A stretch of DNA of 63,486 nt, the filler included, from Phoronis australis (Eukaryota; Animalia; Phoronida), in NCBI GenBank assembly GCA_002633005.1. It is 7 parts of 7 records of this genome, joined end to end, with 100 filler letters (N's around TTAATTAATTAA, not from the genome) between each part and the next. Parts side by side here need not be neighbours in the genome. Positions count along the whole stretch, not along the records: positions 8,545 to 40,024 come from NMRA01001279.1; 6 more parts are not named here. One strand, 5' to 3'. Below, piece by piece: positions 6,923 through 47,372 of the stretch. Position 1 is the first letter of the stretch. Each line of letters begins with the position of its first letter. Position numbers and translations under genes: made by a program. The notes beneath the pieces are model-generated. The model was given only the letters and a program-made list of their open reading frames with translations. It was not told the origin of the DNA and made no database searches.

Positions 6923-8444
6923 GTGGAGGCCAGTGGAGACCAGTGGAGGTCAGAGGAGGCCAGTGCAGGCCAGTGGAGGCCAGTGGAGATCCGTGGAAGC
7001 CAGTGGAGGCCAGTGGAGGCCAGTGGGGGCCATTGGAGGCCAGTGGAGGCCAGAGGAGGCCAGTGGACGCCAGTGGAGGCCAGTGGAGGCCAGTAGAGTT
7101 CAGAGAAGGCCAGTGGAGCGGAGTGGAGGCCAGTGGAGGCCAGTGGAGGCCAGTGGAAGCCAGTGGAGGCCAGTGGATGCCAGTGGAGGCCACTGTAGGC
7201 CACTGGACGCCAGTGGACGCCAGTGGAGGCCAGTGGAGGCCAATGGAGGCCACATAGGCCAGTGGAGACTAGTGAAGGCCTTTGGACGCCAGAGGAGGCC
7301 ACTGGAGGCCAGTGGAGGCCAGTGGAGGACATTGGAGGCCAGTGGAGGCCAGTTGAGGCCAGTGGAGGCCTGTGGAGGCCAGTGGAGGCCAGTAAAGACC
7401 AGTGGAGGCCTGCGGAGGCTAGTGGAGGCCAGTGGAGGGCAGTGGAGGTCAGTGGAGTCCAGTGGAGGACAGTGGAGGCCAGTTGAGGCCAGTGGATGTC
7501 AGTGGAGGCCCGTGGAGGCCAGTGGAGGCCAGTGGAGGTGAGTAGAAGACAGTGGAGGCCATTTGAGGACAATGGACGCAAGTGGAGGCCATTGGAGGCC
7601 AGTGGAGGCCTGTGGAGGGTAGTGGAGGCCAGTGCAGGCCAGTGGAGACCCTTGGAGGCCAGTGGAGACCAGTGGAGGTCAGAGGAGGCCAGTGGAGGCC
7701 AGTGGAGGCCAGTGGAGGCCAGTGGAGGCCAGTGGAGGCCAGTGGAGGCCAGTGGAGGCCAGTGGAGGCCAGTAGAGTTCAGAGGAGGCCAGTGGAGCGG
7801 AGTGGAAGCCAGTGGAGGCCAGTGGAGGCCAGTGGAAGCCAGTGGAGGCCAATGGATGCCAGTGGAGGCAAGTGGACCCCAGGGGAGTCCAGTGGAGGCC
7901 ACTGGAGGCCACTGGACGCCAGTGGACGCCAGTGGAGGCCAGTGGAGGCCAGTGGAATCCAGTGGAGGACAGTGGAGTACAGTGGAGGCCAGTGGAGGGC
8001 AGTGGAGTCCATTGGAGGCCAGTGGAGGCCAGTACAGTCCAGTGGAGGCCAGTGGAGACCAGTCGTGTCCAGTGGAAGCCAGTGGAGGCCAGTGGAGGCC
8101 AGTGGAGGCCAGCGGAGGCCAGTGGAGGCTAGAGGAGACCAGTGGGGGCCAGTCGTGTCCAGTGGAAGCCAGTTTAAGCCAATGGAAGCCAGTGGAGGCC
8201 AGTNGAGTCCATTAGAGGCCAGTGGATGCCAGTGGAGGCCAATGGAGGCCAGTGGAGGCCAGTGGAGTCATGTGGGGCGCTGTGGAGTTCAGTGGAGGCC
8301 GGTGAGGGCCAGTGGAGGCCTGTGGAGGCCAGTGGAGGCCAGTGGAGTTCAGTGGTAGCCAGTAGAGGCGAAAGGACGCCAGTGGAGGCCAGTGGAGGTC
8401 AGTCGATGCCAGTGGATCCCGGTGGGAGCCAGTGGAGGCCAGTG
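6923..8444. repeat. 10-bp satellite/minisatellite (CAGTGGAGGC)n
   Basis: About 150 degenerate tandem units fill the whole segment between two spacers. They produce the spurious WRPVEASGGQ / LASTGLHWPP ORFs. Confidence 0.97.
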
Positions 8445-16114: not shown

Positions 16115-16700
16115 TAGAGAGAGAGAAAGGGAAACTTTATTTTTTAGTTCACATAAAAACATATTATTGTTATATGACTGGGTGGCCAGCAAAGGCACGG
16201 GCCGCTAATAGCTGACCACCGAGTAAAAATAATTTAAATAGATATTAACAAGTAAGAGTAACAATATAGATAACAACAGAAAAAAGTATATCTACAATGA
16301 AATAAAATACAGTGCAATTTCATTTAAAAACGTAAATTAAATGTATTTTACAAAGAATTAAACGCAGAGACTATCGATAAAACGGAAACCGCACGGTTAG
16401 AAAAGCATATGACTAAAGTGCAACACAGGTCATCACGGTTACTTCAATTAGAACATGCATAACATTGTAGAACGTTACACTGAGATCTGTAAGTGCAATA
16501 AAATTAGTCATCAACGGTTTTAAACTTAAAGATATAGTCAGGGTAATCGTGACGATAATTTTCGAAACGTTCATTGCATAACAATATTTGAGAAGCCAAA
16601 TTCATTCCAATGTTAATGAAATTGCTGTTGAACTGATCAGCAATTTTCTGTTAATCAGTAACGCGTCCAGATGCAGTAGAGGTGATAAAATGAAGGAAAA
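16115..16700 (-). mobile_element. 5'-truncated LINE 3' end (second copy at ~24150-24540 in opposite orientation)
   Basis: An identical core GGTGGTCAGCTATTAGCGGCCCGTGCCTTTGCTGGCCACCCAGTCATATAAC (stem-loop) is followed by AATAAA and a (TC)n tail. Confidence 0.6.
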
Positions 16701-17880
16701 CAGTTCTGAAGGATGAATGTTTACTTTATACAGGAAACAAGAATGATCTTTCCTGCGTGTATGAATGAGTGCACTTGTTTGTTTTTTTGCACTTGCTTAT
16801 CAATAATAATAAATACATAGAAAAAATCACTTACAATGAGGAGAGAGAGGAGGCGAGTTACAAAATTCGTGATGGACGGAGGGCAGTCAAAAATCGGTGA
16901 CGACTTGGGATCGCACCGTTTTCTTCCTGCCAGGGTTGCTATAATCCTGGCTGTGCCACTGGTTGTTGTATGCTTAAGTGTTTACGTATATTTGTGGACA
17001 GCTCTTGCCTTGTGGTGGACTAGAATCTACTAGATTATAATCTACTACAGGTACCAGACTGGGCATCAGGGAATATTTTGTAATTAAGGCAGATCAATGT
17101 TTCAAAATGACGATATACGACAACGAGTATGAATTACAGTATAATCCATTGATCCGATTTCCAATAAAGAAAACAAGCAACTGAAAATCAGATTTTAAAT
17201 AAAAGTCGGATCTTCGGTTTTCCATTTTACAAATTTGAACGAACATTGGATTTTCAGTTTTCGCTTGGCTTATAGGAAATGGGATGTTGAAGAAAATATG
17301 GATTTCCACTATCGTTTAACATATTGAAAATTGAATTAACGGAATGATCCGTGGTTATTCATCACGTGCTTCTTGTTTGATTACACTATATCTCGAAATT
17401 TCGAGATTTCAACTTAACTATATCGGGATCTTGATATCTATTAAGTTTGACTATCAGCTTATCTCAAAACGCAATGATAGAGAGAGGAACAGAGAGGGGA
17501 GGATTACGGAATGGCGGGTAGGGAGGCAGTCTCCTTTAGATTGAGGAATAACACAACACGAAACAAAACCTCGAATATTAATACCTTCTTTAAGTTTTGT
17601 CGTTGATGTAAGTCCCCGTTCGTCTGTTCTACGCAAGGGATATGAGGTTCTAACGCGTGAGCGTTGTGTGTGCGCCTTGTTTTCATGGAACACAAAGTGC
17701 CGGCGCTGTCGCAATAAATGCTTACCATCTATTTCCCTTGGTTGTGTATGCTGGCACAGCTAAAAACATGAGGGACTTAAGTGTACGTAATACGTACACA
17801 GTAATTAATTCGTGCACAACGACTTAATAATGGAAATCTTGTTCAGTGAATTCTCAGTAATCATTTGAGGTTGGTACAGA

Positions 17881-18127
17881 ATGAGGCCTTTGCTGATCGT
17901 TGTCATCTCGTGCATTTCGGTTGTCCACTGCGAGGACATGGGAAAGGAGCTCAAGTGTTTCGAGTCCAAATGTCCAGACGAGTTTTTGGCGTGCAAACAC
18001 GACAACAATTGCCTCAATGGCATGTCCTGCTGTCGTCAGGCTAAAGGTAACATGAAGCACATATTTGGCTGTTATGCTACATTCCATAGCACAGCCTTGA
18101 GCGACATGATCAAGTGCGGCCTTTCAC
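17881..18127 (+). CDS. VDE-like lipocalin gene, exon 1: signal peptide + Cys-rich domain
   Basis: MRPLLIVVISCISVVHC is a hydrophobic leader, followed by C-x4-C-x6-C-x5-C-x5-C...C-x14-C. The exon ends at a GTGAGT donor (phase 1). Confidence 0.88.
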
Positions 18128-20715
18128 GTGAGTAGTATTTTCTGACTCCTTAGAAATATTAGTATACCACAACAACGGCGGCAGGAAAAACAGAAACGCT
18201 ATGCTTTGTGCATGATGTTACAGATTATACTAAAATGATGTTATCGAATTCAGTCTTTCTTTTGTTCTAGGCTACGACATAGCTAGTTTGTTTTTCACTG
18301 CATTTTTGAAAAGGAGGCGAACAATGTGTCAGTTCAAACCCTATGCAGGTTTTCCGGCGGATACGCGCATCTTGTCATTAACTTTTAAAGATGCTATTTT
18401 TGCTTCATTTTGTTAAAAACTTCATGAAACGGATCTTTAAGCAAACACATTTATTAGAAACCTAAGCCCAAATAATACTCTTTCGACACGACATCGATTT
18501 TTTAAAAGTAAACTGAATTAAGTACAGACTTTTAGCTTAATTTTTATGTTTGGTGTGTTGCACCAAGACAGGATGGATGCCGGGCGAAGTGTCAATCGAG
18601 ATTCGAGTGTCTTGCGGAGATCGAATATGAACTTGGAAATTTCGCTTAATCTTAAGATCATTTATAGGTATACGTGAACTTGGAATACCCGGGAAAACGT
18701 GGCGTCTTAATTCACTCAAATAATCACGTTCACGTTACTATAATTCCTTAACGAGTAAAACGGATGATTCTGGGACCAAAAATTGCAAAAACTCACTACA
18801 TTAGACAAAAAATTCAACTGATTTCTGTAATGCTCACTCATACGCGATCTTCAAATTATGCAAAATTCAAGTCCACGCACTCTGGGGAAGTAATGGAGGG
18901 CGTTCGGCAGAAGATATTTCGTCCTCCGCTTAAAAGGTCTACTAAGCGTCCTCGAGTTGACTGTTACTGCCGTGAAGTTTTAATTGATTATCATTTTAAG
19001 AGTTGCAATTATCTGTAATCCCAGATGGCTGTTACACAGTCTTAGTTAGCAAAGATTTTGCCCGACAGGTAAGTCATTAACAGACTTCGGCTGTTCGAGG
19101 CGTCACTAGTGGCAGCCTCAGTTTTCGGATTGTTATGGTAGATCTATTTTACTGCCTATCGGGATTTTCAGTAGATAAGCCCATGGGCGAGTATTAGGAA
19201 ATGAAAATATTAGGCGTTTCAATAACATCAATAAACCCGCGAGCGTTTATTTGGAAAAGAGGGGCGTGTAAATGGAAATTCCTAGCTTCGGCTGATATGG
19301 AAATATATCGGCGATGTTTGCATGAAATTTTGCTTTTTAATTCTAAGTTAATAAAACACATAGTTCGCCAACACATCGTTCGTTTTTGCAAATGTTAAAT
19401 GCTCCACAAAACTGAAGTTTTTGGCTAAAAGTTGACGTGGGCTTTTAAGAGGAAATTTTCCGAATAACTGCATTGCGATCTGGACACTTGACACATGTCC
19501 AGAAGTTGTAACACCAAATAAACGGCATAATTTTCCGTATAATTGCGCATGGGCGTTTCATCAGGTGGGCTTATTATACAAGTTTTAAATTATTTTACTT
19601 GAGTTCCTTAGTTATTGATGTCGCCAATCAGTCCAGCATCAGTTGACTTATCAGCAAAGCCCAGATTCCACAGAAAAAAGGTTCATGAATAATTTGAAAA
19701 AATCTGCGTTCAAGCAACCTCACAACATTCACATACGGATAGTGTAACCCAGTAAGTGCTGTTATAAAGCACTGTTTTCGCCACGGTTCACTTGTTACTT
19801 CAATAGAAACTTGCACTTTCTTGTTGAGTCTCCGTAGAGTGTTATGTACATCGGCTTGTTTACTGTAAGTTGTTCTTTAGCTGGGTAGTGTGCTCGTGGA
19901 CATATCCAACTTGAAAGCGTGAACTTGTGTACTTAAAGTACACTTTCAGTAACTCAATTGCAATATAATCTCTAACATGATTGCCCGAAGTAAAATGAGC
20001 AGTAACTCAACAGACACTGCTAGTAAATTTGTGCTAGATCAGAGATCTCGTGTATTGAGGACACAAGTTGGTCAGGCCCGTAGTCAACATTGCACAGGGG
20101 GTGGTTCAAATTTCTGGAACGGTGGACCTTTGATATTTTGCAAAGGTCGATACTAGTTTTCAGTAAGGCCCTTGGCGCAGCTTAATTAGGGGGGAGGGGG
20201 AGTCTATATACACAACGATGACTCTCAGCTCTATATTCCTGAGATGAGACGGAAATGAGGAAGCCGTGACGGTTGTTGTAAAAGAATAGGGCTCAAATTC
20301 GGACATGTAATGTGGTCCAGAAAGAGAACGTTCTCGCGTTACATTCCGCCAAACTTTAAAATGAGGCGTGCTTAAGTGATTGAGTACACCACATTCCAAA
20401 CTCGGACGGAATTTTTTTAGTCCGATAATGACTTCACGAAATTTTTTAACTGGTTGTATTTTTGCCTGTTACTTACATCGCTGGAAATGAGAACGGTCCA
20501 CTATTCTAAAGGTTCACTACCCCCCGAATGTTCGTTACTCCGAAAATATCTAAAATTTCGAAATAAGGTTTAATTTTTACTTTATACTAAACGATAATTC
20601 GGTTATTAGATGCGCTAGGTGGTGTACCTAAAACAACGTGCATAGCATATTGATTTTAAGCGCATACGAAATTACCTGCATGCCTTATGAATATCGAAAA
20701 TGAGTACGTTCTTAA

Positions 20716-21339
20716 AGGGATATCAAACCTATTGAAAGATACTAAAAATAACTTTCCTGTCCAGTTGTTTGAGGCAAAATAATACTCTGTTAGTAACCCT
20801 TGAAACCATCAGAAGTTTGCTGAAAATTTTGAAAACTCCTACCAAAGTTTGCTAAACGGCCAAGCGTGACCTACGCTTTTTTGCGAATTACACGGCAACT
20901 GTGGGAAACGACCACCCACCAAGGACCATAATGTGCAAACCGTGACGTGTATGAATTTTTAATTGATTCCTTCTTTAAAAAGGATTCAAAATCCTGTTTT
21001 GATGATTTCAACCAATCTTCGTTCTCTCACCTGCAGATGCATCATTGGCGTTAAGCTTGAAAGATAAAAGCAGGAATCGACTAAGAATCCATAATCACTA
21101 TCTCAAAAATTGGACATTATGGTCCTTGGAGGGTGGTCTTTTCCTACAGATGCCGCGTAAGTCGCTAAAGTGTAGGTCACACTTACTCCTTTAGCAGACT
21201 TTGTAAGGAGTTTTCTAATATTCATCAAGACTTGTGAGGGTTGTCGAGACGTTACAGAGAATTATTTTGTTTCGAAGAACTGCATAGGAAAGTCGTTCCA
21301 AGTATCTGTTAAAAGTTCAAAACCGGGTTTGGTATACTT
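20716..21339. mobile_element. Foldback MITE with ~220-bp imperfect TIRs, at a TTAA (Kolobok/piggyBac-like)
   Basis: Left end TTAA|AGGGATATCAAACC, right end GGTTTGGTATACTT. The inner arms CCACCCACCAAGGACCATAATGT and ACATTATGGTCCTTGGAGGGTGG pair. Confidence 0.75.
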
Positions 21340-21389
21340 GAAAGATTGACGCTAGTGATGCATTAACAGGTGGCAGGACAAAGATTGGT

Positions 21390-23120
21390 CTGTAACAAAA
21401 AGAAGCCAAACGCATGTGCTACGAAAAACAGTTCAAGCAGCACAAAAATGATATACGTCAAACTTTGCAAGCCATCAAAAACGAAATTTCTAATTCATCC
21501 TTCAGCACTGTTCTCCCTCAGTTTATTACCTCTACTACATCTGGACACGTTACTGATAAACACAAAATAGCTGATCAGTTCAACAACTATTTTACTAACA
21601 TTGGCTTCCCAAATACCAATATGCAATGAACGTTTCGAAAATTATCTTGACAGTTCCCCTGACTTTATTTTTAAGTTTAAAACCGTTGATGATGACAAAG
21701 TATTAAAGGTAATGAAAAATCTAAAATCAAAATCCTCTACAGACAGTGATGGCCTATCGTGTTCATTTATCAAAAAATACTCGAACTTTCTATGAAAAAC
21801 AGTTTCTATGATCATAAACCAATCCCTACGCACAGGTATTTTCCGCGATGGTTTGAAGGTAGCTAAGGTATTCCCTATTTATAAAGGTAATGACACCGAC
21901 AACAACTCTCTTGTTAACTTTACGCCAAAATCTATTCTACCTACAATTTTCCAAAGTTTTTGAAAAAATTGTCTGTTCTTATTTTTCAGATAACAATCTT
22001 CTATATACATGTAGGTCCCAGTATGGTTTCAAGCCCAACCATTCCACTGAACTTGCGGTTACCGAACTCGTCCACTCTCTTTACAAAACATTAGTCAAAG
22101 CTTTAACTCAATTTTCATATTTATGGATCTTTCTGAAGCCTTTCACATCATTGATCACGGTATTCTCCTATAAAAATAAAAACATCAAGGGCTTTCTAAT
22201 AACGAGTTTTATTGGTTTCAAAGCTACCTTGAAAATAGGAAGCAGTTTGTCTGTCTCGATACTGTCACTTCGTCCCAACTTCATATTTTTACAGGTGTAC
22301 CACAGGGATCTATTCTAGAACCTCTCATATTTTTAATCTATGTAAATGACACCACTTTCTCCAGCAAGGCCCAGTTCATTATGTACGCCGACGACGCATG
22401 CCTGTTAATTCTTTTCCATGTTAACAAAAATAACAGCCTCAGCGCTCATACCATCAGAATAAATAATACTATGCACAATGTTTTTGATTGGCTAAATACT
22501 AATAAATTATCTCCCAACACAAGTAAAACTAAATTTATGCTATTTCGATTTCCAGCGAAGATGACATCCATCTAATCAAAATCAACGATAAAGTCATTAA
22601 AAGAGTTGAAAATTTCAAATTTTTGTAGACAGTCATCGTTCCTGGAAAAAGCTGTTCAGGAAATTTCTAACAAAATTGTAGAAACTGCGGGCTTCCTCTC
22701 CATACTGAAATACTATTTTCCCAAACACACACTCTTGATGATTTACAATGCGCTTATACTATCACATCTATATTTTGGTATAATACTATGGGGAATCAAT
22801 AACTGTACGAGATTTAAACTTCTTCAGAAAAAAGCTTTGAGAAATGTTACCAATTCTTCCTTTTTTCACACACAGAACCAATTTTCAGGGAAATAGGAAC
22901 AAGACATATTTAAAAAAGCTTGCCTAAAATTATTTTACTAATTCAAACACAATGAATTGCCTATTTACTTTTATGCTATTTTTTTCTAATTCCATCAGTC
23001 ACCAAGAGATCGTGCTAGAATGTGCAGTCAACAATCCATCCTAAAAATGCCCACCTACTACATAAAAAGTTGTGAAAATTCATTAATGTTCAAAATACCA
23101 AATCTAATTAAAAAAAACTT
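21390..23120 (+). mobile_element. Degenerate LINE ORF2 reverse transcriptase (CR1/L2-group-like)
   Basis: FNNYFTNIG, KVAKVFPIYKG, QYGFKPNHSTELA, GVPQGSILEPLIFLIYVND, MYADD and LYFGIILWG, with many frameshifts. Confidence 0.92.
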
Positions 23121-23199
23121 TATACCACAATATTAGCCTCAAATGGCAGATACAACCGTGTAATAACCCATAAAGTTTACTCACTAGTGAGAAAACATT

Positions 23200-23285
23200 T
23201 TGGCGGGAAACCGAGGCCGGATTCGAAGCCGGGCCTCAACAGTTGCGAGTCGCCGACTTCACCCTTGCACCACTCAGCGGCTGAT
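23200..23285 (-). repeat. tRNA-like (pseudo-tRNA / SINE head)
   Basis: Minus strand GCTGAGTGGTGCAAGGG...CTCGCAA...CCGGCTTCGAATCCGGCCTCGGT has a good T-arm and a partial acceptor stem, but poor D and anticodon stems. Confidence 0.45.
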
Positions 23286-23825
23286 GTCATCGACCGTGAA
23301 AATAGAATACTTAAATGAGCACGCGCAACAATCGCATGTTCAGCAAAGGGCATTGCACCGACAATTATACGCTATGAAAAATAAGACGCAAAATTTCCAT
23401 GAAAACGATATTTTAATTCAGTGAAATTTTTCTCTCGTGTTCTCTCACTTGTAAATCACTGATCTGCAATTTGAATGCAGGTATTGTGTCGTTGGGATCC
23501 TTTGACATGAGCATTATAGTCACTTACTAGTGGTAACCTACTTTAGCAGACGATATTTTCCCGGTCGAAGCTTAGCGTGATAAAATTTGTAGTAAGCTAT
23601 AATAGTTGCTAAACCTTAATTTATAGATTAATTTTATTTCTACTTTGTTTTATTTTTCAATTAGTTTTGAGTAAAAGCATTATTTGACAAAAATAGCTCG
23701 GCTTTTCTTAAAAGGTCACGACCTCCGACCCCGGCCTCTGACATAGAAAGTAGTTACAAAGCCGTGGCGAGTCGAGTAAGGTAGATCGATTCATTCCAAT
23801 GTTTCTCGTTCAGTATGTGGTATAA

Positions 23826-23975
23826 ATAGATTATTACATGTTCTCAGTCGTTATTCCCCTTATCTAGAGCCCTCGTAGATTTTGGAGAATCATCACAATA
23901 ATTCTCCAAAATGCCAAAATCCACTCGGGCTCTAGATAACGGGGGAGAGAACGACTTCGCCATGTAATAATCTAT
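23826..23975. mobile_element. 150-bp palindromic MITE
   Basis: Terminal ATAGATTATTACATG / CATGTAATAATCTAT, with inner arms TTATCTAGAGCCC / GGGCTCTAGATAA and ATTTTGGAGAAT / ATTCTCCAAAAT. Confidence 0.8.
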
Positions 23976-23978
23976 ATA

Positions 23979-23981
<3 letters not shown>

Positions 23982-24065
<84 letters not shown>
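23982..24065. repeat. (TA)n microsatellite
   Basis: About 40 perfect TA units. Confidence 0.98.
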
Positions 24066-24067
<2 letters not shown>

Positions 24068-24149
24068 AGAGATATGGAGGGCACAAAATCGATACGCATA
24101 GCTTTCATGGGTTCTCCATGTATTTAAAAATTATACATATTAAGTACAC

Positions 24150-24540
24150 ACAGCTCTCAGTGTAACGTTCTACATTGTTATGCATGTTCTAACAGAAGTA
24201 ACCGTGATCACCTGTCTTTCATATGCCATATGCTTTTCTAACCGTGCGGTTTCCCTTGTATCAATAGTCTCTTTGTTTAATTCTTTGTAAAATACAATTA
24301 ATTTAATTAATTTACATTTTAAATAAACTTGCATTGTATTTTATTTCATTGTAGATTTACTTTTTTCTATTGTTAGCCATATTGTTCTTCTTGCTGGTTA
24401 ATATCTATTTAATTTATTATTACTCGGTGGTCAGCTATTAGCGGCCCGTGCCTTTGCTGGCCACCCAGTCATATAACTATGCGTGTTTTTATATGACTTA
24501 CAAGGTAAAAGTTTTCCTCTATCTAAAGTTTCTCTCTCTG
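24150..24540 (+). mobile_element. LINE 3' end, second copy
   Basis: Reverse complement of ~16115-16490. Confidence 0.6.
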
Positions 24541-25139
24541 AAGTAATAAACTTTCGAAGGTAGCAAACCTTCGATGTAGTCGACTTACGGAGTAGTGAAC
24601 ATTCCGAATAGTGTCGTGTAACTTTGTAATTTTTTTGCATCAAATTTGTTGCTCGTATGAAATCTGCGAGGCTGTGTACCATTGACACTGATTGACAAGA
24701 GAATATTTCCTTCATTGACCAAAGTTTTTAGTGGGTCGAGACCTACTTTTCCCTAATACTGTGAACATGCTCGTTTTCTCAGTGCAAGAACACACGGTAT
24801 ATGAATGTCTGTTTTTTGTTTGAGCAACGATGCAAGACAGTCTATAGCAAACTTACCATCGGCGTGTACTTAATTTAAAAGAATGGAAACGCACACACGT
24901 GTACACTGGATCAACAACAATCATTTGACGATCACCTTCAATTTGAAATTGTGAAAATGCCTTCACCTTACCATACTATGCTAGCAAGTACACCAAAATG
25001 TCAGATAACATATTTTCTGCTGTTTTATTTCTTGGTCGATTTTAAGGCACCACAAATTCCCTTTTTGAGCTCCTTCCCTACTTTATATCTGAGCTTGATA
25101 TAGACATTTGCTTCTAGACTGCTTTGTTGCTCTATGGTG

Positions 25140-25591
25140 TATCGTTGGCCAAATGGGTGAACATTAGGCCGTTAAAATACGGACGTAAGATAATTCTTGT
25201 TGGAAACGTAAAGTAATTATTTGCGGCGTAAAGCAATTAATTGCGGCGTGAAGAAATTATTTGTGGCGTAAAGTTACTATTTGCGACGCAAGAACATTAT
25301 TTGTGGCATAAAGTAATTATTTGCAGCGTCAAGGAACTTTTTACAGCTTAAAGTAACTTTGTAGGCTGTAAAGTAATTATTTGCTACATAAAGTAACTTT
25401 AAGCTTCGCAAATAATCACTTTACGCCGTAAATAATTACTACGCCACAAATGATTACTTTACGATGATAGCAATTACTTTACACCATAAATAACTTCTTT
25501 GCACCGCAAAATAATTACTTTACACCTCTAACCAGAATTGACTTACGCACGTAATTTAACGACATAACATCCACCCTATTGGCAAACGATA
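25140..25591. mobile_element. Foldback element with inverted arrays of a ~21-bp subrepeat
   Basis: TIR TATCGTTGGCCAAATGGGTG / CACCCTATTGGCAAACGATA. The internal (CGTAAAGTAATTATTTGCGG)n array flips orientation near 25400. Confidence 0.85.
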
Positions 25592-26334
25592 ATATCAACG
25601 ATAATAGAGTAGCAACCATGCATGTTCAGTGTCAATCAATGACGTAAAGCTTCTTCTAATCGTCTGCACGACCCAGTCATCTACCCAAACACCTCTCGGG
25701 CAAAGTTGGGCACTGTGCCCGGGGAGGGACCGATGATTACGTGAAGCACTTTGAATCAGAAACAAATTCAAAATTACTACTAACTTAGTCATCATTGTAG
25801 TTAGTAGTACCAGTAGCGGCTGTTGTTGTTGTTGTTGTCCAGCTATATACTGTTTTTAAAGGATAGGCTGGAGTTAGACCTTTTCTGCGGGGGTGGTTCG
25901 CTTGAACCCCCAGGACCCAACCCGGCCATGGGCCTGTTGATGGTCTGTTTACTACAAATCTAGGATCCTATTCAGGTCAACTAGTTTCGATTCTGTCGCT
26001 GTTGTAGTGTACTTTATGGTAATTATTTTATAATAAACGGTAGTTGCTTTGAAGTATAATTTAATACGTTTCTTTTGTGAACTTTAAACGCACGCTTATA
26101 TACAATTCCAATGGTTTAAGTTGTGTTGAGTCATTTCACAAAACAACAGTCTTTGCCTACGCCTTTGAAACTGACCCTGAACAAGGCCACCTACATAACA
26201 TTTCATAAAAATCAATTAAACTTTGGCTTTTCAGAAATTCTTATTTTGAGGTGGTATCTTGCGATCTAAGGCCTAACAGCAATCCTTGATTAATAGAAAT
26301 TTATTGCACACTTTTGCGAATTCATGTCATCCTT

Positions 26335-29220
26335 TGCTGGGTAACAGTCTTGCAGTGTGTATTCGGACCGACAGTCTACACAGCCCGGTAGAGCTAGTCC
26401 TGATACCCGAGCAACCCTATACGACACACTAGTCTTGCGGTTGAATATCTGTAGATTTTCGGTCTATGTACATCCTGTTAGTCCTAGTTTCGACTACTCA
26501 CTACAAGGCTACCTGTGTAGTCTTGTGGTTGTATACATGCTGACAGTGTTTGTCTGGGTATACTTATCCAAATTGGTGATTTGTATTAATGTTAGCAGAC
26601 GACTCGACAGGGGTCGCACAAACGTATGTGCCACAACAATAACAAACTTACTAATAACTGGCGCAATATTCTCTTCCTTTTCTCCTTACTCAATGACTGG
26701 AAGGATAGAAAGAAATTCACTTGCATAGGAATAATCGTGTGTAAAACTTAAGATACAATTATTAAACAAGAGTCTGGATTTACTAAGAATTTAGAGTCCG
26801 CCAAGTAAAAGTTACTCTTAGAGTACACTAAGGAAGATCAACATCATAGTCATTTAAGTATGAAGGTGGCCGTCGAACACGTTTTGGTCTGGTGCTGACG
26901 CAGGTCGGTTCTGCCAGTGGAGTGGAATGGGAATCATCGACTGCAGACTGGGCAATCTCCAGGTTTGTGGGTTGAGGGTGAATTGGTTCTGCATGTAACT
27001 CATGGTGTTTGTCGTCATCTAATCTGTCGTTATCAAATGGGCGTACTAACTCCATAGGAGACTCAGGGGAGTCTGGTGGCTCCAGGTCATCCATGTAGTC
27101 AACGTAAGTCTTACCTGGAGGAGGAACAACAGATGTCTGCGACGGCACGCGGAAACAGTCGGAAAGTTTAACCTTGTAGGCTGTCGCTCTTAGTTGGGAA
27201 CCAATAAATTTACGAATAAAGCACCACTTTCCAACAATGCTGGTAACCAGGTAAGGATCTCGAATCCGAGACTTGGTACCATCGACATACAAGTAAACAA
27301 GCTCACCGAGATGGATAGGCGAAGTATGGGCATTGACAGAATCTTTTTTCTGACACCTTGTACTATAGCCATGGTTAACCTCTCGCTCACGATGTTTCTC
27401 CAAGATATAATCCCTATCAACTTCAGGAATTTGGTCGTGGGCGAACTGACAGCGTTGGGTCCACAATTCACGAGATGAGAGACCCTGACTACGGATGCTA
27501 TAGTTAAGACGAGCAGTAGCGATGCTGAGACCAAGATCACTGGCAAGACCTCCTTCAGGTTCGAGCCGCAACAGTTCTTGTTCTAACTCAGCGACAGCCT
27601 TCTTGGCAACGGGGTTCTTGTTTGGGTTCTTCACTCTTCCAACTTCAATGGAAAGACCGAGGAGGTTGAGACGCTGGTCCCCTTGTAAAGACACAAAAGC
27701 AGGAGCGGAATCATCACATATGACCGCGTTAGGTCCGCCGATAGGGTGTAGATTAAGAGCTAATCTAGCCAGGCCATCGCGAAGACTGTTTCGCTTCTCG
27801 TCGGGCAAGTGGCTGTGTAGGAAGTTATACACTCCCTTAGAACTAAGATGTTTTGACGTGAACGTTTTATAATATCTGCAGCAAATGACAGACGGGAGGG
27901 AAGCCCTTGTAGTGCTGTGCAAGAATGACAAGACTTGGTCACGGAACGTATGGCTTCTGACAAATCAGGTGCATAAAATTGACGTTTCATCATCATACAC
28001 AACTGGTGCGCGGAAGGATGATCAAGTTTGATGTGAAGAGCAGTGATCAAACCGTCAAGTGCAGAAGGTGCACTACAATCAGCTCAGAGCTGGGAAGGAG
28101 TGGTTGGTTATTCTTAACCACCAAAAGACCATCGCGCGATATGGTGACAACATTCAAGTAACACTTGACGTCTCTCAAATTCGTAAGTTTTTTGGAAGGT
28201 CTTGTACCTTGCTTCAAGTGGGAGTGAACACGACGCAGGTCAGGGAATTCAGATTGAGTACTCAACCAAGCCGATTACTCAGATTACTCAGAATATCTTG
28301 GACAGAAACCTGACGAACAACTGAGTCTTCTGTGAGGGCGATGAAGCTGCAAATCTGAAACCGAGGTTCGTAGCATGGTGGGGCGTTTCTACTGGCAAAG
28401 TCGGACGGAAGGTTAGCAGTGCCGGCGAGGTGTCTAACGGAAACCTGGAATCTGCTTACTGTGGACAAAAATGAAGTTACTCTTGGACTTGCAGAGAACT
28501 CGCCTCGGGAAAGCTTGTCGTTAGCTTGAACACAGGGCTTACTATCAGTCAAGACGCAGGCTTTGTGGAATGACTGTACAATGTAAGGACTGACACGTTT
28601 GATGGCGGCTGCGATGCTGAGAGGTAACTATGTAACTTGGTGTTGTCGTAACTTGGCACTGAAGAAACCGGCGAGCAGAATCTTGTTACCACGTGACAAA
28701 TAAAAGGTAGCGCCAATACCCTGCTTAGAGACTGAACCATCTGTCACTATCCATAGATGGTCATCGGGTCGAGGTAAGGTGATTGACATGCTATGGGAGA
28801 CAGCTGTTTTGGCAGCACTGAAGTGTTGATGTAGTTCATCGGACCAATTCACCTTATCACAGGAGTCTAAACCAGCGATTACTCTATCTAGGGGAGCTAA
28901 AAGCTGGGAGTAATGAGGAAGGACGCGGCCTAGCATTTTATAGGCACCAATGAAGGATTTCATCTGCTTCACAGTGACAGGGGCTCCTGCATGGCTAGGG
29001 TAACCATTCGGTGTGGGCTAGCTGAGAGTCGTCCCTGTGTCCATATCCAACCAAGTATGGTCGTCGACTTAGGGCAAATAATGGTTTTTGAGGCAGACAA
29101 CTTGTGGTTACACGCGTGCGAGGCATGGAGAACTCGTTTCCAGTTAGATGCATGTTCCTCTGGGGACTCGCCGCCACAACAGATGTCATCGCCAAGTTTG
29201 ACTAATATGCCCTCCTGAAG
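26335..29220 (-). mobile_element. Ty3/Gypsy remnant: RT C-half, RNase H, integrase, PPT and probable 3' LTR (~26335-26668)
   Basis: [54 protein letters not shown] and KNPNKNPVAKKAVAELE. The purine tract GGAGAAAAGGAAGAGAA precedes an LTR-like stretch ending ..CCCAGCA. Confidence 0.9.
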
Positions 29221-29224
29221 GAAA

Positions 29225-29876
29225 TATAGGGGCTACAATACTTCCATTCGCTTTCTGTACGCATTTCGTTGAATGTATTTTAAACGAACGGTAACTCAAA
29301 TCCGGTCACCGATTTTTAGTTTTCACCTCGTCAAAAATACATCCCACACTTAAAACTATATCACTTAAAAAAACACTTACTTTCCTCATTGGTCCGTTTT
29401 ACTTCCATGCATACTTTCGATGAAGTTTAGTTGTGAGAATTAAGGTGACTTTGGCGAGAAATTCCAACTCCACGTTTTCACCACGCGTGCGATAACCCCA
29501 GTAGGTCAACTGAGTCACGTGAGTTAGGCAAAGGCCAGCGCGAGACTGAGCGCCAAAGCGCGTGACACTAACGCGTGACACTTGCAAAATAGCATGAGAA
29601 GGTATCAGTTGAAATTTGTAAGATATGTGTCCCTTGGACTTTTTATTCGTCAACATGCGTGATTTCACTTTCTCAAAATGGAACCCGGTAAGAGAAACTC
29701 GAGCAAACCGCCACAGATTTTCATCGATTTGTTCAAGTTTTGCTGACTAAATTGTATCCAGAGTCATGGTATGTGTTAATTAAAACTCCATGTTCCTATA
29801 TGTATGGTTCATTTGACTTTATTTGCTGTATTTTGAAATGAGTAACTTTTTGTGGGGATGTACTATCGCCCCTGTA
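29225..29876. mobile_element. Tc1/mariner-type non-autonomous element
   Basis: TA-flanked imperfect TIR: TATAGGGGCTACAATACTTCC versus reverse complement TACAGGGGCGATAGTACATCC. Confidence 0.5.
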
Positions 29877-30633
29877 TGCCTTCGGCATCCAAGGCGATGT
29901 AATTGTCTAGTTCTCGACATGTTTTTCTTCCATCAGTTGGTTCGTGTGCATTATGGGTAATCACTCCACTGGAAGGGCTGCATAAATAATGAGGCATCGC
30001 TGAAAGTCCGCCCATTTTTTATGAATTTTAAAATAATTATAGTAAAACAACGGAAGTAAATACGTGGTTGTAATTTAGGAAAAGTATTAATTTCAGCAAT
30101 ATCTTCCGGCTGAAAAAACTCATTCTGTGTTCTAAATAGGTGAAAGAAAATAGTATATTTCAGAGCTAAGTTAGCACTTTTCACAGCTACAGCCTGTACG
30201 TTTGAATTTTTAAAACTTTAACTAATTTTTCTATAGACCTTACATCTCTGACATAGCACTCTCTAAAGATTGTGAGAACTCTTGAACAGCGCACGAGACA
30301 AAACGAGTTCCTCGTGAGATGCTAATTTAAATTTCTTTGCCCGATATTTCTGTTTGTACTTTAGTTACCTGATTTTTTCCCAAAATTCCCCATCTTCACT
30401 GTGCTCACACTATGGTCAGCAACATACTTACCAGGCAGTCACAATGGGTCCTCTCTCCCCTGGTCCTCAACCTTCTCCACATAGTCATCAGTTTCGGATC
30501 CCCCGCGCCCTCAAAACGACATACATCATCAACATCCAAATCGTCTCAACGCCGAAATATGACGAGATTAAATGTTTTCGTTTTCGTTCGTATCTGTATA
30601 ATTGCTCTTCGTAATCTCTAATTCTGTCGCCAG

Positions 30634-30890
30634 GTGGCCACTGCTACCAACCGCCCAATAGTGGACCGACGAAGTGCACGAAGCCACCTATTGATTCGCT
30701 TCAACCGAACTTCGATTTGAAATACTTGACTGGGAATTTCTATAATATCTTCGGTCTAAACAGACTGTACGAGTGCGAAAACCACACGCACCAAACTTTC
30801 GTGCGAAAATATGATAACACCCTGGTGGCGGTTGAATGGTACGATCTCACCATGCTTAACGGAAGCGTGCACAACTTTGCCGACGAAATG
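30634..30890 (+). CDS. VDE-like lipocalin gene, exon 2
   Basis: CTAAT branch-like site and CCAG acceptor. Phase 1 joins exon 1 and reads RGHCYQPP...PNFDLKYLTGNFYNIFGLNRLYECENHTHQTF...DNTLVAVEW...DEM. GTTAGT donor, phase 0. Confidence 0.9.
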
Positions 30891-31285
30891 GTTAGTGACA
30901 CGGTCGTGCTGTGATTGATCACCTGTTGCTGTTAATCATGACGTCAACGACGACTATGACGCCGAAGATAACGAGTACGACGTGGACTTAGGAATGTTTT
31001 GTAAACAACTCTTATTGTCCACTACACATCTACAATTATGTTTTAATACGATATCATCTATTTACTTAAATTACCAACGTTCTATTCCAACACTCAATTC
31101 ACAATTTATTGAAGTTTTGCTTTCGTTTAACTGAACATTGCTATTTTAAGTTGATCACGATTTTATTTTTGAAAGTACCATAACACGGTAAATTATAATG
31201 AATAGATTAATAAGTAAGTAATGTTTCACAGTTGGCCATCTCGTTGTCCGTGTATTTGTTGTTTTTGTTGATTGTGGACGTTGTG

Positions 31286-31707
31286 GTGTTGAAATGTCCT
31301 TAACCAACGCGTAGTTTTACTTAATCAACGCGCTGAATTACTTATTTGTTGTGTCCAATTACAAGTTTACACTCAGTACATAACGGCGCCATCATTTACG
31401 TGGTCACTTGATAGGAATCTGCAACATACCCGATACTTCAAAAGTTGCCTTGCACCAGAAGGTATTACCAATGTAGAATGTCTTCCGTCATTTTGAGATT
31501 TGAGAGCACGGGCGTGATTGGGCTATATGAACTGATTAAAGGTACGCTGTGAATAAGCAATAGAGCGCGTTGATTAAGTAAAACTACGCGTTGATTAAGC
31601 ACTGAAAGTGCACGTTGAATAAGAGCAAAACTAATTCAACGCGCTGATTAAGCAAAACAACGTGTTCGTTAAGCAAAATCACGCGTTGAATAAGCACATT
31701 TCAACGC
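31286..31707. mobile_element. Foldback MITE with ACGCGTTGATTAAG subrepeats (intron 2 of the VDE-like gene)
   Basis: Termini GTTGAAATGTCCTTAACCAACGCG / CGCGTTGAATAAGCACATTTCAAC, plus an internal inverted match. Confidence 0.75.
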
Positions 31708-31889
31708 GCAGAAAGGTGCTCGTTTAAAAAGTTACACTTGGCGCTTTATAATCACTCGTCTCGTTGCTGTCGTTCAATAGTGTATGCCTACTTGATGTCA
31801 TGCAACAATCACACTTGTCCACAGCCCCCTTGTGAATCATTGCAAACTTGTAAAAGTTAATTGGAAACAATCGGAAATTTCCCATTCAG

Positions 31890-32038
31890 GAATATTCTAA
31901 TGCTGGCACCGAATCTCCATCCGTACTCAACTTACACACCGTCGGATCCGGATGGATTAGACACGATGAGTTCAGAGTAATGTCCTTTGGGGACAACTAC
32001 GTCTTCTTGTACTACTGTGGAGCAGCAGTTGGCATCAC
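31890..32038 (+). CDS. VDE-like lipocalin gene, exon 3 (not in ORF track)
   Basis: TTTCCCATTCAG acceptor, phase 0. Reads EYSNAGTESPSVLNLHTVGSGWIRHDEFRVMSFGDNYVFLYYCGAAVGI. GTGAGC donor, phase 2. Confidence 0.9.
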
Positions 32039-32325
32039 GTGAGCACTTCCACTTCCGTTTTGCATTGTGATTTACTTTAAGCATTTTCTTGGTTTAATCT
32101 GTCATGGGATCAACACTTGATATAGAATTTCGAATACAGTACGATGTTGCCGTGCATTAATAGGAAATCAGAATTCAGTTTTTCCTACCCAGTCTGTGAA
32201 TTGCTAACCCATATTGGGTGCACCGTGTAGGCTTACTTGTGAACCTGCGAGGTCCCCGGCCACTTTTTTCTTAATGTGGCCCACTCCTGTCTTGTAAGCC
32301 ATCTTAACATGTGTTTGCCTTACAG

Positions 32326-32464
32326 GTATGAAGGTGCTATTGTGCTCTCGCGCACACCTACAATCTCGGAGGCCGATAAACAGGCCGCCATAAAGGAAGC
32401 AGCAAAGCGAGGTTGGGATCTCGAGAAGGACTTCTGTCAGCCCAAGCAAGATATTGATGAATAA
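32326..32464 (+). CDS. VDE-like lipocalin gene, exon 4 (terminal)
   Basis: TTGCCTTACAG acceptor, phase 2. Reads YEGAIVLSRTPTISEADKQAAIKEAAKRGWDLEKDFCQPKQDIDE-stop; VLSR is lipocalin SCR3-like. Confidence 0.9.
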
Positions 32465-32619
32465 GAAATCATGAATAGTTATGACAATGTGTTAAAGATT
32501 GAAAACACTCGTGAGATGAATGCCTTCCACGGAAGAGGGTCAGTTTTACAAAATCCATAATCGTCGACATGTAGCTGTTCAAAAGTCACGCCAATGCTGC
32601 GGCTATGAAGCTTAGCATA

Positions 32620-32625
32620 AATAAA
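32620..32625 (+). promoter_or_regulatory. Polyadenylation signal of the VDE-like gene
   Basis: AATAAA lies ~155 nt after the stop and is followed by T/GT-rich sequence. Confidence 0.6.
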
Positions 32626-33519
32626 AAGCATTTTTGTGTGACACTCTGATGGTTGTACTTGTTAGTAATAGCAAATTGCTCTCGACTCTTCAACAGTGGC
32701 ACGATATAGGGTATAGTGAAAACGCGCATTTTAAAATGTGTCGATTATTGAGGGTGAAATCGACACATTTCGTTTCGCGACCAAAAAGGCGCTAGTAGGT
32801 CCTGGCGTTACTGAACGCGCGCCTGGATGTCCGTTGGTCACAAAATTTATGATTTTGTTAATTCGTTTCATTTTACGGAGACCACCGTAACCTACTTTTT
32901 TAAATTGAACACTAAACATAAAGTAAGTGTCAGACAATGACAATCTAGCCGAAAAGATGGTAATTATGGGGTGCAAGTAAAACAAAGTTCTATTCATTCA
33001 CCTAAAAATATTTTTTACCGGTCAATTTACTTTATTTACATTTCGATCAATTTTAGTTTTAAAGTTAATGGAAGGATAGAAAACAGCGTACTAAGAGTGT
33101 GAGGCTAATAAACAGAAATTCTGAAATAAATTCACTGGAACGTCATTTGTTGTGACGAAAAGGAACAACGGCCGGTGTAGACCCATGGGCTTGTGCTCGG
33201 ATACTCAAACCTCCAGTATCCCTTACTATTGTTCACATGGCGTTTTTGGTGCTCTGTTGCAAAAGTGCTAGCAAAAACGCTAGCGTTTTAATTAGCATGT
33301 GAACCGGGTAATAGAAACGGAATTGTAATTCCTATAGTTTACGGAACTGTCCATTTGCGCCTGCTGGATTGGTTGGCATTTCAAGTTCTGTGCTACATGT
33401 GAAGGCTACGAATAGCATTTGCTTGATTTTTAATCTGTTCTGAGTGAAAGATTGTCAGCTGTAGACCCCTTGACCCAATTTTTGCTCAGCCGTAGCTTTT
33501 CTTGTAAACCTGACTGTTT

Positions 33520-40124: not shown

Positions 40125-41436
40125 CTGTTGGGTATATTTCCATTCGGTTTCGAGTGGGAAATTCTGTATTTTGGATAAAGGTTGGATGCGCAATTCAGTC
40201 GTACAGGTTTGATGTTTTGGTTACTATGCACTTTACTTTTTGCGCAAGTTTCGTCATAAAAGAGAGAGCTCGTAAGCAAGCAGTGCAAATCTAAAAAATT
40301 CCAATATCAACTTCGACATAAGTACAGATTTTGCAGGGATTTGTTTGTTTTGAAACAACAGAAAACATCTGATTTTGGAATACATATTAAGACATGGGTT
40401 CTGAAAGCAGTATATGTTTCAATAGAGAATACACTATTCCCTTAGGTGTACTGATTTCGATGCCCCGGCTGGCGAATAAGTTCGCGGATGTTATTTTTCA
40501 GTACAAGAAAAATTCATATGATTGTCATTAATACTAAATATTTACTTAAGTATAATTAGCAAACAGCATCATCATTGGATAACAGCATATGCTGGTCAAT
40601 AATTATCTTTTTAATTGATCTTATATGGTCTCAATCACCAAGACTGATGTGGAAACAACGCATATAGTCGGTCAGCTTAAACTATGGTGGCGCAACATAA
40701 AAACCTAGTTGTAGCACCACTAAACTCTGTGGCTGAACAAAAAACCCAGGACTCAATGTATGGTAGGAACAAAAAAACTTAGCTCTTTGGCTGCAGACAT
40801 AACACTGCAAGCCCCCGCATTTCCTGACTGATGCCGTAGGGCTCCCAGTGTTTTCTGCCATTTTTGTCCTGTGTAGCACTCTCCAATATGGCGTCATATT
40901 GACAACGCGAGTGCCGCGCGCCCGGTCTATGTGATATCTATGATGAAGACACTATTTCACCATAGCAACCGTATCGTTTTGATTTGCAAATGTTTTAGGT
41001 TAGCTTGTGTTCCTATGTTTAACTACCTACTCTTTAAATAGTTATTTAAAGCCAGCTTACTAATAGTGCAAACTGTGAGGGAGGAAGATTGTACTATCGG
41101 GTGACAAAACCAGTTTTGACGAAATCGTCAGAACAGGGCTTAGTATCTTTGCATTGCAAATAAGTATACCTGTTTTTGCCTGGTACTCGTGCGACTTGAC
41201 GTTCACAGAGTTCCCGACCTTCGTCAGCACCGTAACGTTGAATTGCGTGCCTGGCACTAGCCCTGTGCATACTCCGTACATGTCTGCCTTACTGTAGCGA
41301 GCGACAACATCCGCTTGGTTGTGCGTTGTGCAGTGGATTTCATACTCGCCAGCTAGAGGCGGCACGTTCCCCCACGTCACCTTAATGGTGGTGGTACTTG
41401 TTCCGTTTACCAAAGACAAATTTCCCATTGTTACCG
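40125..41436. repeat. Near-identical duplicate of 43654-45105 (probable second allele), includes FN3 exon copy 41170-41436
   Basis: Only scattered SNPs and small indels differ. The block is bounded by a spacer and a single n. Confidence 0.85.
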
Positions 41437-41524
41437 NCCCCCCCGCTTCGTACGGCCCTGGATATTGCAGCTACAATCGGTTTTCGTCAGCGACTGAGGT
41501 TCCCGCGTGGCGCTTGTATTCTCA

Positions 41525-41995
41525 AGTACGCGGGAAATTAGTAGACATCAAGGTCAAGGTTCAACGGGAGTGATGAGTACGGATACTGATAGACTCCTTG
41601 ATCTTACGGAAATGCCAGTTGGACTCTGTCAGTAATGTTGAAGTTCTCCATAGAGACGGAATGGCTGCTCACGATCACGTGTTCACTGACAGCTTCTAGT
41701 TCTTTGAATCTGGTGTCTATATTACGTTTTTTCTCTCCTATGTATGTGTGCGAGGAGTCTTGATCACACGAGATTTTTTGTTTGCCTGCAGGCGTAGGGT
41801 CGTTGGGTCTGACCAGTTGATTACATAACGTGTTCCCTGAATGCATAAATGGCGATGTCAACTTTATTAGCAAAGAGTCTAATTGGCACTCAAGTAAGAT
41901 CAAGGAATGTATCGAGATCCGTACGCAGCATTTCCCGTTGAACCGTGACCTGGGTGTTAACTTACCTCCCGTGTACATTCCACTATTACGGAAGA
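41525..41995. mobile_element. Penelope-like element GIY-YIG/C-terminal fragments in inverted arrangement
   Basis: Minus strand: LVRPNDP..HTYIGE.KR..TRFKE..AVSEH. Plus strand: KESNW..KIKECIEI....LNRDLG. The two arms share GTAAGATCAAGGA and CCCGTTGAACC.TGACCT. Confidence 0.75.
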
Positions 41996-42419
41996 TTGCA
42001 AGCGCGTGCAGTGTATTGGTAATTGTTGTGTACAATAAATGGAGCATAGTGTGCCCTACTTAGATAATAATTTGGAAACCGAATTAATCGTCGATGCGCC
42101 CCCTCTCGACTTTGGCGCTATTGTGACTCCGATTTTTAAATATTAAAAAAATAATTGCAGGCAGTCTGGTACACGTTGTACCAGACGTGCGCTGGCCGCT
42201 CATGTGGGCCCATTGCACTGGTCACCTGGAAATATGTTTGTGCTTTATTAATATTATATATATTTAAAACCGAGCTGAGGAGCTAGAAACCTGACGCAAG
42301 GGTCTAGCAGTGTAGCCCAGTAGGACTGGAACCCACGACCTCGAGTAAAGAAGGGGGGCACCATCCGATTTACGTAAATGACAAAAATGAGAAAACTCCC
42401 CGTGTTTTTGTGGCTTGTG

Positions 42420-43530
42420 TTTCCCACACCATAGGTGACATTGAATGTCCGTATTCACAAATTGAACGTGAGTGTCCTGCACTGAGATGGGCCGTTGAAC
42501 ATTTCCATCTGTACGTATGTGGAATACCATTTACCGTGATGACCAATCACAAACTACTGGAGTCTATTTTTCGCATCGTATGCGAAACCCTCTCTTCTTG
42601 GGTAGTATTAGTGTTCGCCCTACCAGCATTATAGTTTTACGGTAACCTCAAGTCCTGCGGAATATCTGTCCAGGCATCTGGTTGTCCACTCTGTTGCCTG
42701 TAACGGTCTAACTTCCTCTGAGAACTACAAAAGCCACCACTTCGTTTGAGATTCGTGACACAACCCGGAACGCCCGGTGTTGCAACATGTTGTCAGACGC
42801 CTTGTTGGAAAATCCGTGGTATCAGCGCAAAGAGTTTGACGACTTGAATATTTTCGCTACCCTAGCTTCTGAACTTAGTGTGTCTGATGACGTCATTCTC
42901 CGTGGTGACCGAACTGTTGAGCCCGCTTTTTTTCGTGACAAGACAATCCTTTACTTTGTGCTAAAGCGTAATTCCTTCGTGTCGACGAAATAGTCGAAAC
43001 GATGGTCAAGCATTGCTATCCGCGCATCGTTGTGTATAAGGACAATGCTTTCCCTGCGTGTCAAATGAACCCTTTGTCGAAAGACAAGTGGCAATAGTTA
43101 TGTATGGGGTTTGCATGACCTTTTCCATCCGGTAACCACTGTCTAGTGGTGATCGATGAGTTCAGTCGTTTCCCTGTTGGAGAAATTCTGCATTCCACAT
43201 CCGTCGCACAGACTTGCAGAAAATGTTTAGTACTCATGGTGCACACAAGGTGCTGAAAACGGACCGTTTACGGACCAGCCACGAATTCCGTCGTTTCACG
43301 ACTTACTGTGGCAATAAGCATCCCAGTATCACCCCGCTATGTCCCACAGGTATTGCGATCACCGTAAACTTCATGAAAAGTCTGAACAAAACTATTTGGG
43401 CAGCAACTGTCGAGGGAAAGTCGTGAGTGGAACCAGAAAATGTTTAAAATGTTGAGAAACTTCCGACCCCTCACTCTACAACTGGTGTTTGGATCGAACA
43501 TTAAAGTGTTGTTACCTGAAGTGCCCCGGC
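42420..43530 (+). mobile_element. Highly degenerate Ty3/Gypsy RNase H-integrase remnant
   Basis: YSQIEREC.ALRWAVEHFHLY..G.PFTVMTNHK.L, VILRGDR and LVVIDEFSRFP. Confidence 0.8.
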
Positions 43531-44798: not shown

Positions 44799-44837
44799 NA
44801 ACAGGGCTTAGTATCTTTGCATTGCAAATAAGTATAC

Positions 44838-47301: not shown

Positions 47302-47372
47302 CTATGAAAATAGTCTTCAGTTTAATGGAAAAGGGCTCTTGATGAATAATTGGTATGTCAGATGCTACAAAA

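Follow-up and report, generated by a model that had tools for sequence, protein, structure and literature searches.

A spliced and transcribed gene for a divergent protein of the violaxanthin de-epoxidase family in the phoronid Phoronis australis

An intact gene for a protein of the violaxanthin de-epoxidase (VDE) family was found in the genome of the phoronid Phoronis australis. The DNA analysed, called the window here, is a stretch of 63,486 nucleotides in which parts of seven records of assembly GCA_002633005.1 are joined with filler letters (N), and the gene lies on its plus strand in the part taken from record NMRA01001279.1. The gene is spliced and transcribed in an animal genome, and its product carries a Cys-rich cap in front of a VDE-type lipocalin part. 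Judged from its sequence, the product is a divergent member of the family and is not VDE, VDL or VDR proper.

The four joined exons (Table 1) gave an open reading frame of 792 nucleotides, that is 263 amino acids and a stop, with phases 1, 0 and 2. All three introns are of the GT..AG type, an in-frame stop lies upstream of the ATG, and not one N occurs across 17881-32625. The frame, splice sites, phases, gap-free span and AATAAA proposed by a sequence-only reading of this DNA were recomputed and agreed with it, as did the spacing of the cysteines, of which the last in the cap (C86) is encoded in exon 2. A signal peptide was predicted at residues 1-17 (from a hydropathy of 3.1 and by eye only), directly before the cap. 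Expression was analysed in three raw RNA runs labelled as the same species (X1, X2 and X3), with about 18-19% of each run sampled. The junction 18127>30634 was crossed by 5, 8 and 14 reads respectively (27 in all), the junction 30890>31890 by 4, 3 and 6 (mapped as 30889>31889, the cut lying at +1) and the junction 32038>32326 by 8, 7 and 10, so that the RNA sequencing check of the splicing succeeded for each junction in each of the three runs. The first mate of the junction reads was always on the minus strand, which is the orientation of plus-strand RNA. A contig run, X4, gave zero support for any of the three junctions. The mean RNA depth of introns 2 and 3 was zero, one repeat excepted; it was also zero at 17300-17833 upstream of the gene, fell below 1 by 32576-32647 and was 0 beyond, the end of coverage being at about 32647. 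Exon depth was low, about 3-16 in 11-13 million records.

The membership of the VDE family was analysed with a profile of 57 VDE-family homologues, using 200 shuffles and the reversed protein as controls. The spliced protein scored 115.3 bits, the best shuffle 5.5 bits and the reversed protein -4.0 bits. The Pfam VDE family (PF07137) matched exon 1 at positions 3-63 (22.8 bits) and exon 2 at positions 77-132 (22.0 bits); exon 4 matched Lipocalin_2 first (20.5 bits) and then VDE at positions 203-239 (13.6 bits), and exon 3 alone gave no Pfam match. The three VDE matches are collinear and sum to 58 bits, each being below the cut-off of 25.7. Together with the profile score they uphold the earlier assignment to the VDE family. 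Among the class profiles the ciliate one scored highest (92.8 bits), followed by two VDL profiles (67.8 and 51.5), two bacterial profiles (61.3 and 19.4), VDE (49.2), the pair of eukaryotic loci L018/L038 (42.6) and VDR (24.1, the weakest eukaryotic class), with shuffles at 9.2 bits or less. In direct comparison the protein gave 32.1 bits with plant VDE, 62.9 with a ciliate homologue and 3.0 with a Blc-like lipocalin, shuffles giving 2-7. A profile of five ciliate proteins and the exons recovered Arabidopsis VDE at E 6e-12, the next lipocalin standing at 0.42. Identity to all VDE, VDL, VDR and other family members was 14-24%, and at most 22% to any algal or plant member.

ApoD, crustacyanin and Blc have the barrel fold and the secretion that are predicted for the window protein, and crustacyanin carries a carotenoid. 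Unlike the window protein, they have no Cys-rich cap, and crustacyanin and Blc reached E 0.4-0.7 on the ciliate and exon profile. A barrel-only lipocalin of ApoD or Blc type was ruled out by the Cys-rich cap and by the Blc-like score at shuffle level. The check for a best match to ApoD or another lipocalin was negative, the cap being in frame with the lipocalin part through the exon 1-2 join; only exon 4 favours Lipocalin_2. The lipocalin domain of the XACT acetyltransferase was also examined and found not relevant. The model of exon 1 showed five helices with a predicted local distance difference test score (pLDDT) of 84.7. A barrel model was made for the ciliate proxy P0006 only (pLDDT 92.5), and its top structural matches were 3CQR and 3CQN. 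Compared with 48,161 PDB chains, the exon 1 cap model found none at Z>=5, the best being 4.2, and single exons compared with solved structures recovered no VDE. The cap model (17932-18126) also gave two weak rows for GFR-alpha chains, which are likewise disulfide-rich helical domains, at Z 3.5 and 3.2, below any trust level.

Residues were mapped through the PDB 3CQN numbering of Arabidopsis VDE (3CQN/3CQR, PF07137) and the alignment of the 57 homologues. The window protein resembles Arabidopsis VDE in having the Cys-rich cap joined to a putative lipocalin barrel, with eight of the ten cap cysteines in register and four of the five disulfide pairs kept. The catalytic D177 corresponds to D194, Y198 to Y210 and F123 to F138, and the D177 column holds an acid in 48 of the 57 homologues. 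The two proteins differ in their overall sequence (19-21% identity) and in the N-terminus, where a plastid transit peptide would not fit beside the predicted signal peptide. The residues of the pH switch and dimer are changed (H121 to Q136, Y214 to L225, D114 to E129, D117 to N132), and the Glu-rich acidic tail is absent, C255 being followed by 8 residues to the end.

The window protein also has the extra cysteines C51, C97, C130, C211 and C255. The last four form a set common to the ciliate, L018/L038 and many bacterial rows. Among these, C211 is the Cys of the YYCG motif, which occurs in all 25 rows of ciliates, bacteria and L018/L038 and in none of the 31 rows of VDE, VDL and VDR. The disulfides C97-C255 and C130-C211 are inferred from the co-occurrence of these cysteines across the homologues, which is imperfect, as in the rows of the VDLb group C130 and C255 occur but their partner Cys do not. 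C51 would be unpaired.

The RNA runs revealed a second version of the transcript, 6-8% divergent over 30634-32464. This version is frequent in X1 and X2, is almost missing from X3, and has Tyr in place of F196 at the W179 column. The 26 coding variants (among 40 of the 67 variant rows) fall in 23 codons, of which 15 are silent and 8 are not. This silent share of 15/23 was compared with an expected 21% (p about 7e-6) and with 33% (p 0.002). Three of the 26 coding variants occur in nearly all reads and mark the window's own allele. The divergent transcript is either an allele or a paralogue; tblastn found no second gene copy within the window. Reads of opposite orientation with the variant letters were also seen in X1 and X2 over 30560-30847, at the start of exon 2 and slightly into the intron, and are possibly antisense or unspliced RNA from a second copy.

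The surroundings of the gene were analysed for its origin. Two stretches of intron 1 are 82-85% identical to repeats located beyond the gene, at 16122-16718, and the repeats of intron 1 are abundant in the same-species RNA runs. A multi-exon gene of FN3 repeats lies at 41063-52296 on the minus strand; the one exon tested had fibronectin as its best match. The 12.5-kb intron bearing retroelements, its repeats shared with outside DNA and RNA runs, and the FN3 gene indicate an animal, likely invertebrate, origin of the locus.

Table 1. Features of the VDE-family gene and of its first intron (window positions)
Feature	Position	Strand	Details
Exon 1	17881-18127	+	247 nt; start codon, predicted signal peptide, most of Cys-rich cap (C26, C31, C38, C44, C50, C51, C64, C79)
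Intron 1	18128-30633	+	12,506 nt, GT..AG; host repeats, decayed retroelements
Exon 2	30634-30890	+	257 nt; C86, linker C97, lipocalin motif I, C130, first barrel strands
Intron 2	30891-31889	+	999 nt, GT..AG; repeat at about 31280-31730, with repeat reads on both strands
Exon 3	31890-32038	+	149 nt; D194, F196, Y210, C211
Intron 3	32039-32325	+	287 nt, GT..AG
Exon 4, coding part	32326-32464	+	139 nt; lipocalin motif III, C-terminal helix, C255, stop
3' untranslated region	32465-32625	+	AATAAA at 32620-32625
Reverse-transcriptase fragment, probably a long interspersed nuclear element	22180-22572	+	RVT_1 42.5 bits, above cut-off
Decayed pol fragments of a long terminal repeat retrotransposon	26831-29017	-	inside intron 1
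Integrase_H2C2	27763-28083	-	34 bits
RT_RNaseH_2	28631-29017	-	24.6 bits, below cut-off

Relatives of the protein were collected from metagenome contigs by a scan for a short motif of the family, which gave at least 119 loci. The labels VDE-like, VDL-like and VDR-like were assigned here by characteristic motifs, and representatives scored 103-371 bits on Pfam VDE. Five of the loci (L004, L024, L032, L058, L069) are on short contigs with C4A4-type ends and are open when TAA and TAG are read as Gln, features that mark spirotrich ciliate nanochromosomes. These and further ciliate proteins (P0005-P0017) have an N-terminal hydrophobic leader and all ten cap cysteines. The five and P0005-P0008 were the best matches of the window protein, with up to 68 bits pairwise and the profile score given above. 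They are like it in the leader, the linker Cys, a Cys at the A115 column, YYCG, the C-terminal Cys and the compact barrel length, and unlike it in their sequence (20-24% identity), in C118, which they keep, and in the Gln at their catalytic column. A motif scan of genome contigs gave nine loci, of which four are family members amid ordinary bacterial genes; in those bacterial phyla 7 of 131, 2 of 301 and 1 of 39 genomes were above the cut-off, with 0 of 14 controls. The bacterial members (L120, L124, L126, L128, L129-L144, P0018) are lipoproteins and secreted proteins of at least two subgroups, one of which keeps the pocket Asp and Tyr. A query with P0018 found no close locus among the genome contigs, and two motif scans of viral contigs were empty. 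Two loci, L018:125-1006 and L038:104-985, are eukaryotic. Their proteins begin with a hydrophobic leader, which is short, and carry the YYCG Cys set together with every catalytic and pH residue of VDE; in the tree they lie close to VDE, and they may be of MAST-4 type. P0002 and P0004 were seen to consist of tandem VDE-type Cys-rich caps with no barrel, the cap thus being also a free module.

The position of the protein in the family was analysed with quick trees. The first held 38 of 58 rows (the 20 omitted were mostly near-duplicates), and 24 rows were used for the approximately unbiased (AU) tests. In the 38-row tree the window protein stood apart from all supported clades on a long branch (3.0) and was joined to VDR at 43/0 support, a joining that carries a long-branch warning. 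Nesting within VDE was rejected (p-AU 0.004), as was nesting within either VDL group (p-AU 0.02), values to be treated with care on account of the long branch. Sister positions to the ciliates (p-AU 0.41), to VDL (0.28), to VDE with L018/L038 and to the bacteria were all allowed, in the range 0.27-0.41, and no donor or direction of transfer is therefore claimed. Recent uptake from a food alga appears unlikely on these comparisons, while ancient inheritance and ancient transfer are alike compatible with the trees. The algal proteins VDL1, the violaxanthin-neoxanthin tautomerase, and VDL2, which converts diadinoxanthin to allenoxanthin, are like the window protein in the shortness of the cap loop, with 13 residues separating the equivalents of C33 and C50, in having neither the pH His nor the acidic tail, and in the loss of one cap disulfide, which is a different one in the VDLa group. 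They are unlike it in having Glu in place of its Asp in 17 of 17 VDL-labelled rows, in Y214, which it does not keep, and in their long barrel insertions.

The 2026 review PMC13181403 assigns VDE, VDL and VDR to photosynthetic eukaryotes and treats the origin of the enzymes as an open question. Coesel et al. 2008 (PMC2483416) reported a single oyster expressed sequence tag, which was suspected to be algal contamination, found no prokaryotic homologue and included an Acanthamoeba sequence in the cap alignment. Two PF07137 genes in Manila clam and none in three other molluscs, including Pacific oyster, were counted in PMC5499747 (2017), and Roy et al. 2014 (PMC3998028) described the VDE-like protein 1451 of MAST-4. 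Set beside the window gene by their descriptions, the MAST-4, oyster and clam records are likewise VDE-family sequences from non-photosynthetic eukaryotes, with no functional test reported in the text available; they differ in offering, in the text available, no intron-bearing gene with splice evidence, the clam record being one sentence with a count of two. Further sources were PMC7056318, PMC3093257, PMC6949322, PMC4396506 and PMC13080032. In the literature searched, most subscription papers lying outside the search, there was no work on the function or evolution of animal VDE-family proteins and no mention of ciliate members. In the Atlas, the top rows for the query P0006 were PF07137 clusters of 282 and 291 amino acids. 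The first has 174 members, with Mollusca the commonest phylum (phylum known for 61), and the second 95, with Porifera the commonest (phylum known for 9). Their lengths fit the 263-residue window protein, the comparison being by length and automatic name alone. The supposition that invertebrate homologues might already be named automatically agrees with these clusters. The sequence-only reading had also described VDE, VDL and VDR enzymes as known from photosynthetic eukaryotes; the family reaches beyond these, with ciliate and bacterial members found here and MAST-4 and animal ones in print.

The function was considered in the light of the known enzymes. According to PMC13181403, the epoxide in VDE receives a proton from D177 and is reduced by ascorbate once acid has triggered dimerisation; D177 and Y198 are essential, and conserved polar residues of the pocket are taken as a sign of catalysis. 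VDL1 is described as tautomerising violaxanthin on the same scaffold with no cofactor, needing no ascorbate and working with fewer cysteines, and the characterised family members in the literature found all act on epoxy-xanthophylls. A kept acid, a lost reducing and switching apparatus and a predicted signal peptide before the cap would suggest a secreted, constitutively active enzyme for the opening or rearrangement of epoxides of dietary xanthophylls. The window protein is thus tentatively predicted, at well below even confidence, to be a secreted and cofactor-free isomerase or hydrolase of dietary epoxy-carotenoids. In the mechanism proposed, the signal peptide would be removed and the disulfide-locked five-helix cap would sit on the lipocalin barrel, itself held by the two putative extra disulfides. 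A xanthophyll, for example fucoxanthinol, diadinoxanthin, violaxanthin or peridinin, would enter the barrel with one of its end rings, and D194, in the role that D177 has in VDE, would donate a proton to the 5,6-epoxide. As the contacts for ascorbate and the pH-dimer switch are lost, the reaction would end in rearrangement or hydrolysis and not in reduction. The site of action could be the gut, the lysosome or another extracellular space.

Several observations weigh against this enzyme. The C37/C46 pair is lost jointly, to A54 and H60 (positions at which 56 and 57 of the 57 homologues have Cys), and the window protein is the sole one without it; single losses of Cys in plant VDE are reported to be drastic (PMC13181403). 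C118 has become H133 (Cys in 56/57), W179 has become F196 (Trp in 53/57) and the Trp of lipocalin motif I has become F118 (Trp in 55/57), while the ascorbate contacts D114 and Q119 are changed to E129 and T134 (Asp and Gln each in 55/57). The D177 column holds Gln in 8 of 9 of the ciliate proteins, the closest matches, and the bacterial members adjoin unrelated housekeeping genes, none of ten neighbours belonging to a carotenoid family. No single exon exceeded the Pfam cut-off and exon 4 favoured Lipocalin_2; in the Atlas, exon 2 alone matched generic lipocalin or unnamed clusters among the rows listed. D194 is known here from one animal sequence. The protein searches, which were word- or fragment-limited and cannot show absence, returned no animal homologue: exon 1 found four matches among 1.84 billion representatives (two Cys-repeat proteins and two spurious repeats) and no animal orthologue, exon 2 found seven candidates among longer proteins, none significant, and from 473 and 309 candidates the alignment searches retained 16 and 5, each of metagenome-type origin.

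The Gln of the ciliates and the existence of the bacterial members make two other readings nearly as likely as the enzyme, though each is doubtful in itself. The protein might be a non-catalytic secreted carrier of carotenoid or pigment, serving uptake, transport, egg provisioning or colour. The lipocalins are mostly passive carriers (PMC13181403), a plain lipocalin role was proposed for the MAST-4 member by Roy et al., the nearest matches are those with Gln at the catalytic column, and the ascorbate and pH-switch residues are gone; the pocket nevertheless keeps a charged Asp with its paired Tyr, and the low exon depth is unlike that of a bulk carrier, the tissues of the RNA being unspecified. 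Slightly less probable than a carrier is a protein that acts on or binds a non-carotenoid lipid, such as an epoxide of a fatty acid, oxylipin or sterol, which would be the older task of the family in bacteria, ciliates and animals, with carotenoid use a later plastid specialisation. The occurrence of members in ciliates and, amid housekeeping neighbours, in bacteria points this way, as do the YYCG Cys outside the VDE, VDL and VDR rows and the replacement of the polyene-stacking Trp. No such activity was found in the literature searched, and carotenoid substrates would be available, since ciliates and marine invertebrates eat algae.

A true ascorbate-dependent de-epoxidase making zeaxanthin or diatoxanthin in the animal is improbable. 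The catalytic column holds Asp and not Glu, as in VDE proper, the equivalent of Y198 is kept, and clams and starfish are reported to contain de-epoxy carotenoids (2011 review); against these stand the changes of D114, Q119, H121, Y214, D117 and the C118 disulfide, the absent acidic tail and the rejection of a grouping with VDE alone. Algal contamination, a chimeric assembly or a dead gene can be regarded as highly improbable. The contamination suspected for the oyster tag in 2008 and the N runs elsewhere in the window would favour such an artefact, whereas the gene itself is free of N, its long intron holds host repeats that recur outside it and in the RNA of the same species, all its junctions are used, its variants show a silent-site bias, its identity to algal and plant members is low and fibronectin-like FN3 exons lie nearby.

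Two other features of the window were recorded. Within the FN3-gene region the segments 50998-51819 and 51821-52624 (95%) and 40125-41436 and 43654-45104 (98-99.7%) are duplicated; as they adjoin N positions, they represent either assembly overlap or recent exon duplication. A long tandem array with a unit of about 30 nucleotides, open in several frames on both strands, occupies 6923-8444 and is probably a minisatellite.

Animal members of the family had been hinted at and doubted in print and labelled automatically in databases. The spliced, repeat-filled and transcribed gene removes the contamination doubt of 2008 for Phoronis australis, and together with the ciliate and bacterial members it suggests a secreted, non-plastid branch of the VDE family. 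The 2011 review describes the opening or conversion of carotenoid epoxides in marine invertebrates such as bivalves, tunicates and echinoderms, the enzymes being then still unidentified, and the window protein is a candidate for this epoxide cleavage or rearrangement of dietary carotenoids, with a bearing on shellfish pigmentation and carotenoid biocatalysis. It is conceivable, though rather doubtful, that animals from sponges to molluscs and beyond hold an ancient secreted VDE-family branch of the ciliate and bacterial type, older than plastid use, and that this branch would be the missing class of enzymes opening and rearranging the epoxides of algal carotenoids to give the characteristic pigments of marine invertebrates.

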